Source: an uncultured Candidatus Saccharibacteria bacterium
GTDB taxonomy: Bacteria > Patescibacteriota > Saccharimonadia > Saccharimonadales > CAZDBS01
Direction: 5' to 3'
Length of the DNA stretch: 64,000 bases
NCBI GenBank assembly: GCA_964503775.1
Contig: CAZDBS010000001.1
Span: 9,621 to 73,620 of the forward strand
The position numbers and the translations under genes are program-made. This document shows positions 34,436 to 39,455 of the stretch, piece by piece. Position 1 is the first letter of the stretch, and each line of letters begins with the position of its first letter. The notes under the pieces were generated by a model, which was not told the DNA's origin, ran no database searches, and worked only from the letters and a program-made list of their open reading frames with translations.

Positions 34436-35881
34436 TCAGGATAATTGTACTTCATCTGTCAGGGGCTCGTCGAGTCGCCGAACCTTGAGCTTCATGATGA
34501 AAATGATAGTAAGCACGGCGACATAGTAGAGAATGAACTGCTCTCTGGTAATCTGTACCTCCCTAAGCGCTCCGGGTATACGCGCCAACAACTCGACGAG
34601 CTGAACGATCACCCCCAGGACCGTTCGCGCTGGCCAGGCTAACCAACCGGCCAGGTACGGCGAAAACATACCAGCTAGTCCAGCCACAGCTGTCAGTAGC
34701 ATAGCCATAGGGACTAACGGCAAGATGACTAGGTTTGCCAGCAAGGCCACTATAGATAATTCGCCGAATATGTAGGCGATAAGTGGTATGGTCATGAGTT
34801 GGGCGCTTGTCGTCTCGATGATAATCTGCGGTACCAGCCGCGGCTTTTTGGCTTTATAGAGTCGTTTGGTGATAGTTGGAGCCACTACGATAATTCCGAA
34901 AAAGGCTAAGAACGATAGATACCAACCGAGATCAGTCCAGAAATACAATGGCTGGAACATGGCACTGATTGTGGCCGCCGTGATCAATAGTATAAATGGC
35001 TGAATAGTTCGCCCAAAATACCACGCCCAGAGTGTCAGTGTTGAGACAATTGCGGCCCGTACAATCGAGGCACTAAATCCCGTAATAGCTATGAAGACAC
35101 TGATCAAACCAAGCGATGAGATCGTCGTGAGATATTTGGAGCGCTTTGATAACATTCGCCTCATGGTATCCACCAAAATCGTCAGGTTATAACCCGACAC
35201 GGCGACAATATGTGTCAGTCCTGTCGCCGTGAGTTCTTTGGTTAGATCATCAGGTAGTAAACTCCGTGCCCCGACCAGGAACCCCAGACCCAATGAAGCC
35301 TGAGGTTCCGGTAGGGCTGAGTATAACCCTGCAAAAAACCGACCGCGTATGCGTTCGACAAACGAATCGCGTCGACCGATAATCTCGATGTCGGCAAAAC
35401 TCATAGCTGCTTGATTGGCACCAAAACCACGGCGCAACTTGCCTGTTACGGTGACGATGTCACCCCGGAGTACGCCCGGACTGAAGCCTTTGATAGCAAT
35501 TTTACCCGGGACTTCAGCATCGTCATTATCACGGACATCCACGATGTGAAACGATAGTTGTCCTCTGTCACTATAGGCCGCATCGTCACTGACGATTCCT
35601 TGCAGCGTCACCGTACGGTCAAACCAATCATCATAGTGTTGAATTCCGCCGAGTAGTGTCTGACCTCGCCACAAGCCCAACGACATACCCAGTGTCATCA
35701 TGACAAATAGCGCCGGCCATTTACGTTTGAAGACGAGAGGCATTAACAGAACAGACTCAAATGCATAGCTTATGTTGGGCGGATGGCCGAATCGAGCCCA
35801 CAACAACCCCCCAAGCATCCCCAGACACAATACGACGACAAACCAGGTTTGCGGTACCCGTCGGCGCCAAATAGACTGCAT
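34436..35881 (-). CDS. comEC: ComEC/Rec2 DNA internalisation channel (481 aa, no C-terminal metallo-beta-lactamase domain)
   Basis: DUF4131-like OB region, then a competence domain (TGLTHIVAVSGYNLTIL...). The protein ends after the TM core. Confidence 0.8.
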   Translation of the reverse strand: MQSIWRRRVPQTWFVVVLCLGMLGGLLWARFGHPPNISYAFESVLLMPLVFKRKWPALFVMMTLGMSLGLWRGQTLLGGIQHYDDWFDRTVTLQGIVSDDAAYSDRGQLSFHIVDVRDNDDAEVPGKIAIKGFSPGVLRGDIVTVTGKLRRGFGANQAAMSFADIEIIGRRDSFVERIRGRFFAGLYSALPEPQASLGLGFLVGARSLLPDDLTKELTATGLTHIVAVSGYNLTILVDTMRRMLSKRSKYLTTISSLGLISVFIAITGFSASIVRAAIVSTLTLWAWYFGRTIQPFILLITAATISAMFQPLYFWTDLGWYLSFLAFFGIIVVAPTITKRLYKAKKPRLVPQIIIETTSAQLMTIPLIAYIFGELSIVALLANLVILPLVPMAMLLTAVAGLAGMFSPYLAGWLAWPARTVLGVIVQLVELLARIPGALREVQITREQFILYYVAVLTIIFIMKLKVRRLDEPLTDEVQLS

Positions 35882-35960
35882 GAGTGAATTATGCCGACGT
35901 TACATAAAAACTACAAGAATCGGCTAGAAACTCTTCATAACATAGCGTGATTACAGCCAG

Positions 35961-36260
35961 TTAAGTAACGTCTTTAACTTGAATGACAAATTCACAAGCC
36001 TTACCAATTGAAATCAAAGCGTTTGTTCGTATTTCTTTCTTAATCGGCAGCAAATACGATCCAGACTTCTTATCAGGGAAGATAGACGTATGCCAAGAAA
36101 TTCCCTTTACCTCAGCTTTGACTTTTACTGAGCCAAATCCTTTTCGGTATTCTGAAGTCAAAACCTTGATCTCGTCTGATATATCCCCGGGTAGTGTTAC
36201 AAAAACCCACGCTCCGGCGCCATCGTATAACCAAGGTTTAGCTTTAAATGTATACTCCAT
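35961..36260 (-). CDS. DUF1905 domain protein
   Basis: AWVFVTLPGDISDEI...GFGSVKVKAEVKGISWHTSIFP pattern. Confidence 0.6.
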   Translation of the reverse strand: MEYTFKAKPWLYDGAGAWVFVTLPGDISDEIKVLTSEYRKGFGSVKVKAEVKGISWHTSIFPDKKSGSYLLPIKKEIRTNALISIGKACEFVIQVKDVT

Positions 36261-36287
36261 AAGACAATACTAACAGAGCTACCAAGA

Positions 36288-37052
36288 TTAAGGTCGGAGG
36301 GTTCCGGCAAATACTTGCCAAGCCAGCAATGACTTAGCGACTAGGCTTAAGATGACATACATCCTCTCACCATACAGATAGTCCTTCCATGGGCCCACTT
36401 TTCTGTACTGCAAAATCATATTTACTGCAAAGCAGCTAAAGAACACGAATATTGATACAAAAATCCAGTATACAAATGTAGGTGCCGGACTTCCTTGATT
36501 AGCGCCTAGCCACATGTACATAGCAATCACAATCCACGGCATGATGCCCGCAAAGCACCCTATGTAGTAACTCAGCCAGTTTGTCTTTTTTGTTGTTTGA
36601 TTATGTATTTCCATGACCAAGCCCATGAGGTTCATTATGGCCGTTAACGAAAATATCATCATCAAACTGCTCAAATCATAAACTCCTACCAACATAGCTA
36701 TGGCAATCATCATTACACTAGCCGAGATAGAGTATTCTACCCATCTCATTTTATTCATTCCGAGTTTTAGATCAGAGTTATATCGTTTGTTGTGTAGGGT
36801 TGCAATGTAAAAATGAAAAACCGATGATATAAAGAAAAACAATGCAATCAATAACGGAAGTTGCAAGTTAAACAAATCGGTAGTAGCTGGCTCTAAAGCC
36901 TTACTTGAATCATTAAAAAACAAGAAATTACCAGTTACGGGTATTGCAAAGCTTTTACTTAGTACCACCACCAGAACACCCTGGAATAAATGCAAGAATC
37001 CCGCTACGAGGTTTAGTCTTTTGAATTTTGATTCGGTGATTATTTTAGTCAT
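36288..37052 (-). CDS. Heliorhodopsin
   Basis: From memory it is close to the prototype HeR 48C12. Shared blocks: VAGFLHLFQG, SSVFHFYI, RWVEYSISASVM (counterion Glu), YIGCFAGIMPWI, and YLYGERMYVILSLVAKSLLAWQVFAGTLRP (retinal Lys in SLVAKS). Confidence 0.9.
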   Translation of the reverse strand: MTKIITESKFKRLNLVAGFLHLFQGVLVVVLSKSFAIPVTGNFLFFNDSSKALEPATTDLFNLQLPLLIALFFFISSVFHFYIATLHNKRYNSDLKLGMNKMRWVEYSISASVMMIAIAMLVGVYDLSSLMMIFSLTAIMNLMGLVMEIHNQTTKKTNWLSYYIGCFAGIMPWIVIAMYMWLGANQGSPAPTFVYWIFVSIFVFFSCFAVNMILQYRKVGPWKDYLYGERMYVILSLVAKSLLAWQVFAGTLRP

Positions 37053-37095
37053 GCTTACATGATAACAAGAATGGGGGCAAGTATCTCAGATTTGT

Positions 37096-37185
37096 GGCCC
37101 AGCGGGGTCGCTACGCTCCTCCGCTCAGACATGCTCGATGCAAGCATCTGCGCGTGTCTTCGCTACACCGAACCCGCTTCGCGTG
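37096..37185 (-). repeat. Degenerate tRNA-Lys 3'-half copy interrupted in the T-loop by the conserved ~60-nt insert (copy A)
   Basis: Minus-strand sense: cgcgaa-gcgggttcg | gtgtagcgaagacacgcgcagatgcttgcatcgagcatgtctgagcggaggagcgtag | cgaccccgctgggcc. The flanks match the tRNA-Lys T-arm and 3' acceptor. Confidence 0.6.
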
Positions 37186-37204
37186 TTCCAATCTCACAGA
37201 GATC

Positions 37205-37266
37205 TCTCCATGAAAAACACCCACGCAAGGTGGGTGAATTTCATGGAGGGCCCAGCGGGGCTCGGT
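37205..37266 (-). repeat. Perfect 21-nt duplicate of the tRNA-Lys 3' end (cgagccccgctgggccctcca) with its own terminator hairpin
   Basis: 37246-37266 is identical to the 3' end of the intact tRNA at 37437-37457. It is followed, in minus-strand sense, by tgaaattc and the hairpin cacccac-cttgc-gtgggtg-ttttt. Confidence 0.7.
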
Positions 37267-37436
37267 CACCTTCGGCGACCCCGGAACTTTCATACTTTCA
37301 ACGGAGTTGAAAATCTGAAAGATTCCCTTGCGATCCGCCACTGGCGGATCTCACCCCCGACACGCTCCGCGTATCGAGAGCCCGAACTCACTAGAATCTC
37401 CAAATTCAAAACCCCTCCTTCGAGGGGCTCTGAATT

Positions 37437-37512
37437 TGGAGGGCCCAGCGGGGCTCGAACCCGCGACACGCGGCTTAAAAGGCCGCTGCTCTACCAGCTG
37501 AGCTATGGGCCC
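37437..37512 (-). tRNA. tRNA-Lys(UUU), CCA encoded
   Basis: The reverse complement is gggccca-ta-gctc-agctggta-gagc-a-gcggc-ctTTTaa-gccgc-gtgtc-gcggg-ttcgagc-cccgc-tgggccc-t-cca. Confidence 0.9.
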
Positions 37513-37575: not shown

Positions 37576-38061
37576 TCACTTATCTTCCTTTTCGCCGCCG
37601 TGGTTTTCAAACATGATAGTTATTAGACTCACGCCGACGGCAAAAAGCACAATCCAGGTTTTGTATGTTTGAAACAAACTCCAGACCGATGAGTTGCGCA
37701 GCGAATCTCGCGCGCCATAAGGTAAATAATCCGCTATGAACACCGTGATAAGCGCTACAACCCCAACAGATGGAGCAATCTGTGTGATGAGTTTACTGGC
37801 AGATTTTTGTGAGTCTCTAAAGTACAGTGCGATCAGTACCCCAGGTGCTAGGATCATAGCCAGCTGCACAAATGAATCCAATGGCAGAGATATCGATCCC
37901 TGGAGGTTTTTAACACCCGTAGAAGCCGCTTGGCCGATATTAGCTACCAATACTGAACCTGCACAGAGTGCCAGCACCACGAAGGCGCTATGGGTCTTCA
38001 TAACGATGAGGCCTAAGAATACTACCAAGAATAGACCAGCCAGTATCATATCGATGGTCAT
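37576..38061 (-). CDS. Polytopic membrane protein (hypothetical)
   Basis: I chose the start at MTIDMILAGLFLVVFLGLIV (M56 of the track ORF), which avoids overlap with the upstream DUF192 gene. 4-5 TM helices. Confidence 0.45.
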   Translation of the reverse strand: MTIDMILAGLFLVVFLGLIVMKTHSAFVVLALCAGSVLVANIGQAASTGVKNLQGSISLPLDSFVQLAMILAPGVLIALYFRDSQKSASKLITQIAPSVGVVALITVFIADYLPYGARDSLRNSSVWSLFQTYKTWIVLFAVGVSLITIMFENHGGEKEDK

Positions 38062-38083
38062 ATACCTCAATATACCACAAGCG

Positions 38084-38602
38084 CTATGGGTTGCTGGGGA
38101 TAAATTCGAGACGTTGCCCGGAACGTAACTTTGACGCTTGGCCGGCGGCAACTTCCAAGACATACCTTGCTGGTTTCGTTGGCTGAAAGACTTTCGGGTA
38201 GGTATTGGGTTTGACGTTACGCTCAACGGTTACGATCCGCTTATTCGCATCAATCCATATGATATCGATGTCCATACGCATGTCTTTCATCCAAATGCCA
38301 TGCCGGTCATCAGTCTCAAAAACGAACAACATACCATCGTTACCAGGAATCTTGGTTCGATTGGCAAGACCTCGTTGTTTCTCAGTTTCGGTCTTGACAG
38401 CCCTGGCGCACATGAGCTTGGTAGAAGTCGACCTATCTACGATCGTCACTCTGCCACCACTACAAGACACCACTGTTGGTCGTTGCTGTTGGGTTAGTAT
38501 GCCAAGCCAAATAGCTAGAAGTAGCAGAAATATGAGTTGTGGAATAAATCTAGGCGCCGATTTTATCTTTGCGGTGACGCTGCTTAGCGTTTTTCTCGAC
38601 AT
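38084..38602 (-). CDS. DUF192 (COG1430) family protein with signal anchor
   Basis: GMLFVFETDDRHGIWMKDMRMDIDIIWIDANKRIV...YVLEVAAG is the DUF192 core. The start is uncertain (38602 or 38626), and either choice overlaps the rimK 3' end. Confidence 0.6.
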   Translation of the reverse strand: MSRKTLSSVTAKIKSAPRFIPQLIFLLLLAIWLGILTQQQRPTVVSCSGGRVTIVDRSTSTKLMCARAVKTETEKQRGLANRTKIPGNDGMLFVFETDDRHGIWMKDMRMDIDIIWIDANKRIVTVERNVKPNTYPKVFQPTKPARYVLEVAAGQASKLRSGQRLEFIPSNP

Positions 38603-39455
38603 ACTCGATAATTTTTGTAGCAACATCTCGGTTGGTCATTAATTCTGGTGTCTTAATACTGGCAGACGAGTTAACCTCGAGCACGAGTGGACCCTTCTCA
38701 GACCGCATCATATCGACACCGCAGATCGTCAATCCCATAGCTTTGGCAGCTCGGATGGCAGTTTTCTCTTCTTCGTCAGTCAATTTAACTGGTTTACCAA
38801 CACCACCCTGATGCGTGTTAGACCGGAAATCGTCATCAAGACTCTGTCTCTGAACACTGGCTACAACTCGACCACCTACCACAAGAGCACGAATATCCGT
38901 ACCGGCTGATTCTTTGATAAACTCTTGAACCAGGAAACCTACGTTCTCGACAAAGAACGCCTGCATCACGGCTTTGGCAGCTTTGGTAGTTTCGGCAAGC
39001 ACCACTCCGTTGCCATGAGTACCACGAGCGACTTTGATAATTACTGGCGCACCGCCCACTAGCTCTATCACTGCATCAAAATCAGCGGTCTCACGGGCGA
39101 AGACCGTCTTGGGTACCCCTACGCCGTTTTTGGCTAAGATCTGATAAGCGCGAAGCTTGTCGCGTGAGCGTACGATAGATATAGAACTGGCAGTTGTGTA
39201 TACACCCTGCATTTCAAACTGTCGAACGACAGCCGAGCCATATTTCGTATAGCTCTGAGCGATACGTGGAATAACAGCGTCGATATCGTGGAGCGGCTCA
39301 CCTTTGTAATACACCAGCGGGTGGCCTTTCTCAATTGTCATATAACACTTCGCGTAGTTCACGATGCTGACTTTGTGCCCATGCTGCAACGCCACTTCTT
39401 TGAGGCGTTTGGTTGTGTAGTTGGCAGAACCTTTGGAGAGTATGACAATGTTCAT
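38550..39455 (-). CDS. rimK: RimK-type ATP-grasp alpha-L-glutamate ligase
   Basis: Collinear with E. coli RimK from memory: MNIVILSKG..YTTKRLKEVALQHGH, DAVIPRI, RDKLRAYQILAKNGV, GAPVIIKVARGTHGNGVVLAET, DIRALVVGGRVVA, DFRSNTHQGG, CGVDMMRSEKGPLVLEVNSS. Confidence 0.88.
   Translation of the reverse strand: MNIVILSKGSANYTTKRLKEVALQHGHKVSIVNYAKCYMTIEKGHPLVYYKGEPLHDIDAVIPRIAQSYTKYGSAVVRQFEMQGVYTTASSISIVRSRDKLRAYQILAKNGVGVPKTVFARETADFDAVIELVGGAPVIIKVARGTHGNGVVLAETTKAAKAVMQAFFVENVGFLVQEFIKESAGTDIRALVVGGRVVASVQRQSLDDDFRSNTHQGGVGKPVKLTDEEEKTAIRAAKAMGLTICGVDMMRSEKGPLVLEVNSSASIKTPELMTNRDVATKIIEYVEKNAKQRHRKDKIGA

Follow-up and report, generated by a model that had tools for sequence, protein, structure and literature searches.

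A TaHeR-like heliorhodopsin of Saccharimonadales in a variable interval between comEC and RimK, with signs of old exchange among Saccharibacteria

How does a heliorhodopsin gene come to lie beside a tRNA-Lys gene in a member of the Saccharimonadales, and from where would its product obtain retinal? The 64-kb stretch of DNA analysed here (the window) belongs to a genome of 782 kb in 41 contigs, with 47.4% GC and an estimated completeness of 86.5%, and it carries on the minus strand, at 36288..37052, a gene encoding a protein of 254 amino acids. A preliminary description, made from the sequence, had recognised a heliorhodopsin and suggested that the gene may have been acquired horizontally, pointing to an AT-rich composition and to adjacent tRNA-Lys repeats taken as recombination scars, with the chromophore possibly scavenged.

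Profile searches left little doubt about the family. The Pfam model PF18761 spans ORF 36288-37052 end to end with 326.6 bits (profile positions 2-242 of 242; cut-off 26.7 bits) and the NCBIfam equivalog NF038020 “heliorhodopsin HeR” matched it with 332.7 bits (cut-off 100 bits), both far above the cut-offs. Collinearity with the prototype 48C12, noted in the preliminary description, was borne out by alignment to the solved structure (PDB 6su3), in which residues 10-254 of the window protein correspond to residues 12-255 with 190 bits, and the best solved match, the archaeal TaHeR (6is6; 279 bits, residues 7-254 aligned), is closer still. The motifs quoted earlier as conserved all align to functional positions: H21 (FLHLFQ) to H23 of 48C12 in TM1, H80 (VFHFYI) to H80 in TM2, the counterion E106 (RWVEYS) in TM3 to E107 of 48C12 and E108 of TaHeR, and S236/K240 of the TM7 SxxxK motif (SLVAKS) to S237/K241 of 48C12, with K240, the predicted retinal Schiff-base Lys by alignment, matching K238 of TaHeR. 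A hydropathy scan with overlapping calls merged predicted seven transmembrane segments, and the loops carry 14 Lys/Arg residues on the N-terminal side versus 2 on the opposite side, a bias that would fit the inverted topology of the family with the N-terminus inside (cytoplasmic). Comparison with homologs gave a pN of 0.10 versus a pS of approximately 0.8 (pN/pS approximately 0.12), which indicates strong purifying selection. Judged by its sequence, the identification is secure, with an intact, full-length reading frame and all key residues kept.

Both structurally characterised relatives are instructive for comparison. TaHeR (Thermoplasmatales archaeon SG8-52-1; PDB 6is6, 7u55, 7clj) has the same SLVAKS and RW.EYS motifs, both His residues and a TM5 nearly identical to that of the window protein (MNLMGL.ME.HNQTT), but it comes from an archaeal host, whereas the Saccharibacteria protein has a TM5-TM6 loop that is four residues longer. 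In HeR-48C12 (PDB 6su3, 6su4, 6uh3), which originates from an actinobacterial fosmid and is further away than TaHeR by its 190-bit alignment, H23, H80, E107, S237 and K241 are all matched.

As the preliminary description had noted, no crt or blh genes lie within the 64-kb window. Extended to the whole 86.5%-complete genome, profile searches found no match to Blh (PF15461; a model without a positive control above cut-off), phytoene synthase crtB (PF00494), carotenoid oxygenase (PF03055), trans-prenyl diphosphate synthase (PF00348; a model that matched 14 of 14 control genomes) or type-1 rhodopsin (PF01036). The sole matches to the amine-oxidase (PF01593) and lycopene-cyclase (PF05834) models came from one generic flavoprotein on contig C18, which was rejected as CrtI or CrtY, as it scored 38.8 bits against the crtI_fam cut-off of 238 and PF05834 covered its FAD-binding N-terminus only. 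Likewise, none of the 201 Saccharimonadales genomes sampled gave a Blh match, again in a search without a positive control. Because the genome is 86.5% complete, these absences are not proven. Since no retinal pathway genes were found, retinal must, as far as this gene content goes, come from outside the cell; the bacterium is probably unable to make it and may take the chromophore from a host bacterium or from the surroundings. The earlier suggestion of a scavenged chromophore therefore agrees with the gene content of the genome and with the published view. According to Jaffe et al. 2022 (PMC9296517), rhodopsin-bearing Saccharibacteria have no blh and host Actinobacteria are proposed as the retinal source; the same paper notes that apoproteins of TaHeR-type heliorhodopsins take up retinal fast via an opening. 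Chiriac et al. 2022 (PMC9166423) report that CPR heliorhodopsins come predominantly from Saccharimonadia and that SLVAK is the motif seen most often. The window protein thus shares with the Saccharimonadia heliorhodopsins and rhodopsins of these two papers the host group, the SLVAK motif, the lack of blh and the setting for which host actinobacterial retinal was proposed, although the proteins assayed by Jaffe et al. were type-1 proton pumps and the one described here is a heliorhodopsin.

The interval in which the heliorhodopsin gene lies, bounded by comEC and by tRNA-Lys/DUF192/RimK, turns over fast. Its left flank is the conserved block RuvA-RuvC-YebC-ComEC, with comEC at 34436..35881 on the minus strand (Pfam Competence, 152 bits; 78% identical to the congener G001), and its right flank, at 37576..39455 on the same strand, comprises a membrane ORF, DUF192 and RimK, assigned by Pfam and by synteny with G001. 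The membrane ORF probably encodes about 160 amino acids, with a start near MTIDMILAG. Gene order on both sides is shared with the congener: RuvA, RuvC, YebC and ComEC are 78-90% identical (YebC 88%), RimK 95% and DnaJ 89%, and the membrane ORF is also syntenic. Between the two flanks lies a segment that varies relative to G001 (35749..37436), delimited by blastn breakpoints at 35748, where DNA homology ends within the 5' part of comEC, and at 37437, where it restarts exactly at the tRNA-Lys gene. In the orthologous interval G001 is missing the pair formed by heliorhodopsin and the neighbouring DUF1905 gene and carries 1.18 kb of unrelated cargo, consisting of a DUF6624 gene, a degenerate tRNA-end copy and a 71-aa ORF, that has no homolog in the window's genome; a GIY-YIG gene of G001 lies on the other side of tRNA-Lys. 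The congener's own heliorhodopsin is 66% identical and is located on another contig among neighbours without orthologs in the window's genome. Furthermore, the window's neighbour set was shared by 0 of 99 heliorhodopsin loci of representative genomes, and DUF192-RimK also flanks heliorhodopsin in two other lineages, L144 and L147.

The AT-richness of the gene pair, previously judged by eye, is real: the heliorhodopsin and DUF1905 genes (35961-37052) have 38.9% GC versus 47.4% for the genome (z -3.05), within the lowest 0.7% of 1092-nt windows. The heliorhodopsin deficit sits in codon position 1 (z -3.1), while its GC3 of 0.447 (z -0.63; genome mean 0.486) is not an outlier. For DUF1905 the GC3 is 0.36 (z -2.0), a value obtained from 99 codons only. 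The synonymous-usage score is approximately z -1.4 for both genes, and here too heliorhodopsin is not an outlier. Moreover, the heliorhodopsin genes of 8 other hosts are also low in GC1 and GC2, and their GC3 tracks the host. The low GC is thus largely an effect of amino-acid composition that is seen with heliorhodopsin genes in every host examined. Because GC3 and codon use of heliorhodopsin are ordinary and low GC1 and GC2 are common to heliorhodopsin genes, composition is weak evidence for transfer, and after the codon-position split and the comparison with the 8 other hosts it was rejected as a sign of acquisition.

A similar distinction applies to the tRNA-Lys repeats. The intact tRNA-Lys(UUU) gene at 37437..37512 on the minus strand (ARAGORN; Rfam RF00005, 70.8 bits) forms the right edge of the variable interval and is 98.7% identical to that of G001. 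Its 3' end, from the T-loop on, recurs as an exact 21-nt copy at 37244-37264, 193 nt downstream, where none is expected by chance. This copy belongs to a non-coding, tRNA-associated mini-element unit (37244..37436, minus strand) that also contains a terminator hairpin at 37398-37441 and a conserved core. A second unit (37053..37243, minus strand), with a terminator-like hairpin at 37206-37248, a terminator-like site at 37236-37218 and a 12-nt partial tRNA-end copy at 37096-37107, has no second copy anywhere in the genome and is probably an older, decayed unit of this kind; in both units the tRNA-end copy comes after a terminator-like hairpin. If heliorhodopsin has a separate promoter, it must lie within 37053..37243; a promoter scan returned no more sites than shuffled sequence and none that was usable. 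The core of the first unit is common to units behind tRNA-Glu (contig C15) and tRNA-Lys(CUU) (contig C1), and an exact downstream copy of the own 3' end was found for 4 of the 34 tRNAs in the genome; no Rfam family matched the spacer or the first unit. Even when up to 3 mismatches were allowed, the window, including the gap between DUF1905 and comEC, contained no further copy of the tRNA-Lys 3' end. As all copies sit on the tRNA side and none lies between DUF1905 and comEC, they do not bracket the gene pair. Moreover, the 1.69-kb variable segment contains no integrase or recombinase ORF and holds the heliorhodopsin and DUF1905 ORFs only. The presumed scars were therefore rejected as island borders (attL/attR), all the more as copies of the mini-element stand also behind tRNA-Glu and tRNA-Lys(CUU). 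The repeats described beside the gene are real but are part of a separate small structured non-coding element.

The family is widespread in this order. PF18761 scored above cut-off in 158 of the 201 sampled Saccharimonadales genomes, so heliorhodopsin is native to the lineage; approximately 82 of these genomes, by manual count from the table, carry a high-scoring canonical heliorhodopsin, and many genomes of the order have 2-3 copies. Heliorhodopsin relatives that lack the Lys are also common in this order. Among named genomes, the loci most similar to the window's heliorhodopsin all belong to Candidatus Saccharibacteria/Saccharimonadales, and the nearest homologs, from metagenomes, are approximately 80-84% identical to the window protein. 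In the trees the window heliorhodopsin is nested among Saccharibacteria sequences that form a clade excluding Thermoplasmata, Chloroflexi and other Patescibacteria. The gene is not foreign to its lineage, and a donor from another phylum is very improbable. In AU tests a grouping of the window's heliorhodopsin with that of the congener was not rejected (p 0.168 and 0.384); vertical descent is compatible with this outcome, and for this reason the gene tree alone decides nothing.

The comparison of heliorhodopsin with its neighbours is more informative. Heliorhodopsins of the 81-85% identical type lie in or beside the comEC...DUF192/RimK interval, with differing cargo, in five lineages: that of the window, L144, L147/L148, L149 and L153. 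The other carrier lineages are far more distant from the window than is G001 in ComEC (42-51% versus 78% identity), RimK (64-65% versus 95%), DnaJ (75-77% versus 89%) and YebC (68% versus 88%). In the ComEC tree the window and G001 are paired with a support of 100, while the other carriers fall into two separate, well-supported clades, where the members closest to them carry divergent heliorhodopsins or lack the gene. Among 14 genomes, pairs carrying this heliorhodopsin type are 81-85% identical at ComEC identities of 42-58%, whereas the median identity of the 85 remaining pairs is 61%. In these sequence comparisons, heliorhodopsin similarity is decoupled from housekeeping-gene similarity. Between L149 and L153 a whole block is affected: Fasciclin (81%), TetR (83%) and heliorhodopsin (85%) are similar, while the adjoining ComEC (44%) and YebC (71%) are not. 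Here a multi-gene Fasciclin-TetR-heliorhodopsin cassette has clearly moved between distant Saccharibacteria. Because synonymous sites are saturated (pS approximately 0.8), any transfer must be old, and it would have taken place among Saccharibacteria. Of the horizontal acquisition proposed in the preliminary description, the absence of the pair from the congener's interval, the decoupling from housekeeping genes and the cassette moved between L149 and L153 speak in its favour, while composition, scars and a foreign origin do not.

These observations can be set against three other accounts of the locus. The version closest to the original proposal, that the pair was imported from outside the lineage by a tRNA-Lys-integrating element which left behind repeats and a foreign, AT-rich composition, draws on the low GC of both genes, the tRNA-end copies that adjoin them and the absence of the pair from the congener's interval. 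It is hardly credible when the closest homologs all belong to Saccharibacteria, GC3 and codon use are ordinary, and the repeats represent a mini-element that also stands behind other tRNAs, fails to bracket the genes and is accompanied by no integrase ORF in the interval. A protein that works without retinal, or a decaying relic, might be expected in a cell that has no chromophore supply, and the lack of a detected retinal pathway as well as the frequent Lys-less relatives in the order could be read in this way. We consider this highly improbable for a gene with an intact, full-length frame, with K240, E106, S236 and both His residues kept and with a pN/pS of about 0.12, the more so as PMC9296517 notes that related apoproteins rapidly take up external retinal.

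The third account is the most serious one. An early ancestor of the Saccharimonadales might already have had heliorhodopsin in the ComEC...RimK interval, where the gene then stayed and evolved slowly, while other lineages, the congener among them, lost it or kept a different old paralog; no transfer would then be needed. That five lineages have the 81-85% type within this interval or next to it is also what vertical descent predicts; saturated synonymous sites make all divergences old, GC3 matches each host, and the AU tests spare the clade with the congener's copy. In addition, many genomes carry 2-3 copies, and sorting of old paralogs can therefore mimic transfer. Nevertheless, the carriers occupy three separate, well-supported ComEC clades in which the closest genomes sampled carry a divergent heliorhodopsin or lack one, heliorhodopsin identity stays flat at 81-85% while that of ComEC ranges from 42 to 58%, and vertical descent offers no explanation for Fasciclin and TetR at 81-83% beside ComEC at 44% and YebC at 71%. 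Ancient residence without transfer is hence an unlikely explanation, albeit far from a negligible one, and old exchange within Saccharibacteria is rated somewhat more likely.

The only gene that shares the variable segment with heliorhodopsin encodes a DUF1905 protein of 99 amino acids (35961..36260, minus strand; PF08922, 79.5 bits) and starts 27 nt past the heliorhodopsin stop. As both genes lie on the same strand with a 27-nt gap, in which no terminator-like site was found, they are probably co-transcribed. The AF2 model of the DUF1905 protein (pLDDT 90.4) had 2D9R, the DUF1905 prototype, as its only significant fold match and predicts a small soluble beta-barrel; a sequence search of DUF1905 against the PDB gave no match. 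A fold hit to the Anabaena sensory rhodopsin transducer (rank 38, TM 0.29) was noise. Of the 201 genomes sampled from the order, 51 encode a DUF1905 protein, and the closest homologs are 56-62% identical to that of the window and to one another. Among the 6 closest homologs, 3 have a heliorhodopsin within 1 kb, and two heliorhodopsin clades are represented: in L156 DUF1905 is followed by a histidine phosphatase and then by a heliorhodopsin with 76% identity to that of the window, in L189 by a 164-aa membrane ORF and a heliorhodopsin of a different clade (43% identical), and in L193 only 44 nt separate it from the N-terminal part of a heliorhodopsin. As a general neighbour of heliorhodopsin DUF1905 is unsupported, since it occurs at 1 of 106 other heliorhodopsin loci, the adjacency being missing in 105, and heliorhodopsin was near DUF1905 at 0 of 12 GTDB loci and 0 of 80 metagenome loci, 72 of which have at least 60% GC and are probably actinobacterial. 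A metagenome scan with a single DUF1905 sequence as query returned nothing, and the ten heliorhodopsin neighbour groups described in PMC11109279 do not include DUF1905. The recurrence in three other contigs hints only weakly at DUF1905 as a possible partner.

As for function, the protein would insert with its N-terminus in the cytoplasm and is predicted to bind all-trans-retinal through a protonated Schiff base to K240, for which E106 would serve as the counterion. The retinal would be supplied by a host bacterium or the surroundings, in line with the papers on TaHeR and on Saccharibacteria rhodopsins. CPR bacteria have a single-membrane (monoderm-type) envelope. Heliorhodopsins have been described as confined to monoderm-type envelopes (bioRxiv 10.1101/356287), and their function is debated; both statements of the preliminary description agree with the literature (10.1101/356287; PMC8612252). 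Several heliorhodopsins modulate partner proteins, as found for AbHeR with glutamine synthetase (PMC9529153), TfHeR with photolyase (PMC9769723) and OcHeR with the ABC transporter OmrDE (PMC11109279). Light harvesting with exogenous carotenoid antennae has been proposed instead (preprint 10.1101/2025.11.27.691015), and a link to oxidative-stress responses has been suggested (PMC8612252, as cited in PMC9166423). Judging from the family, the most likely role would be that of a slow-cycling light sensor which modulates a partner protein, rather than that of an ion pump. Neither glutamine synthetase (PF00120) nor photolyase (PF00875) was found in the 86.5%-complete genome by models that matched the controls, and the co-oriented DUF1905 protein encoded 27 nt downstream would be the only local candidate for a partner. 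The arrangement resembles the AbHeR, TfHeR and OcHeR operons in that a co-oriented gene follows closely downstream, but there the neighbour is the regulated partner, whereas here it is DUF1905, whose adjacency is rarely conserved. Neither DUF1905 nor the ComEC/tRNA-Lys/RimK interval is discussed in the passages of PMC9166423 and PMC9296517 examined.

Taken together, we are fairly confident that the gene encodes a canonical, functional TaHeR-like heliorhodopsin of a kind common in Saccharimonadales, which uses external retinal, acts as a light sensor and came to this interval by old cassette exchange within Saccharibacteria. Its arrival or retention there would most likely be due to an old exchange of small cassettes among Saccharibacteria; neither a recent transfer from another phylum nor the tRNA-end “scars” would have brought it in. 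Saccharibacteria carry competence genes. The bolder reading, in which the comEC/tRNA-Lys/DUF192-RimK interval is a hotspot where cassettes with heliorhodopsin are swapped among distant Saccharibacteria, probably by natural transformation, and a DUF1905 subgroup serves as heliorhodopsin partner, we put forward as speculative and rather improbable.

A heliorhodopsin in a bacterium of this group that cannot be seen to synthesize retinal is a correct but ordinary finding, since both features are already the published norm for Saccharibacteria (PMC9166423, PMC9296517). As it stands, the locus adds little to the known concentration of heliorhodopsins in Saccharimonadia and to their presumed dependence on host retinal. 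If confirmed, however, DUF1905 would be a testable candidate signalling partner where glutamine synthetase and photolyase are missing, and heliorhodopsin cassettes landing in one variable interval would represent a concrete case of gene flow among reduced episymbionts.

The block of Fasciclin, TetR and heliorhodopsin genes found on two metagenome contigs with close relatives of the window heliorhodopsin (L149:4152-6239 and L153:3197-5289) is 81-85% identical between them, and the genes adjoining it are 44% (ComEC) and 71% (YebC) identical. Here a small cassette has clearly moved between distant Saccharibacteria. On another such contig (L154:2278-4944), the 80%-identical heliorhodopsin is directly followed on the same strand by genes for a response regulator and for a histidine kinase with HisKA and HATPase domains, an arrangement that agrees with the sensory-kinase neighbourhoods of heliorhodopsins reported by Bulzu et al. 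(PMC8612252). Across the order Saccharimonadales, approximately half of the heliorhodopsin-family matches are divergent, with 20-35% identity. Among 12 divergent relatives sampled (L274-L285, from genomes G056, G010, G019, G012, G013, G024, G048, G027, G021, G007, G006 and G009), five lack the Schiff-base lysine, which is replaced by Y, Q, V, R and R, and in most the counterion Glu is changed to Asp or Gly and the TM1 His is missing.

In the source genome (G000), structured non-coding units of ~170-190 nt that share a conserved core were found behind three different tRNAs: Lys-UUU (window 37244-37436), Glu-CUC (C15:16171-16320, L286) and Lys-CUU (C1:1500-1910, L287). Each unit terminates in a displaced tRNA 3' end, and 4 of the 34 tRNAs of this genome have their own 3' end copied exactly downstream. 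In the congener G001, a nuclease gene of the GIY-YIG type (PF01541, 56 bits; L047, C10:4285-4605) is inserted 5' of tRNA-Lys, and at its far border 16 nt of the tRNA 5' end are repeated with 88% identity; this looks like a homing-type insertion at the tRNA. The 216-aa ORF at window 37576-38226 overlaps the DUF192 ORF by 143 nt. Since the G001 ortholog has 159 aa and begins MTIDMILAG, the true start is probably an internal Met near 38056. The product, a small membrane protein, has no Pfam match.

An amine-oxidase-type flavoprotein of 428 aa (PF01593, 134 bits) is encoded within G000 C18:7130-10893 (L001), where its ORF overlaps the end of an ORF for an NDH-2-like pyridine-nucleotide-disulfide oxidoreductase and is faced by a glycoside-hydrolase-like ORF of 447 aa; its assignment as CrtI was rejected. 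The trans-prenyl diphosphate synthase family (PF00348), whose model matched all 14 control genomes, gave no match in the whole of G000, nor was glutamine synthetase found there. Subject to the 86.5% estimated completeness of this genome, both absences fit with extreme metabolic reduction.

Contigs of at least 60% GC carry 72 of the 80 closest metagenomic relatives (L194-L273; 40-57% identity) of DUF1905, the 99-aa gene located 27 nt downstream of the window heliorhodopsin (35961-36260, minus strand). These high-GC contigs are probably from Actinobacteria, known as the phylum to which the hosts of Saccharibacteria belong. Such probably actinobacterial relatives raise the question of whether the DUF1905 genes of Saccharibacteria originated from their hosts.
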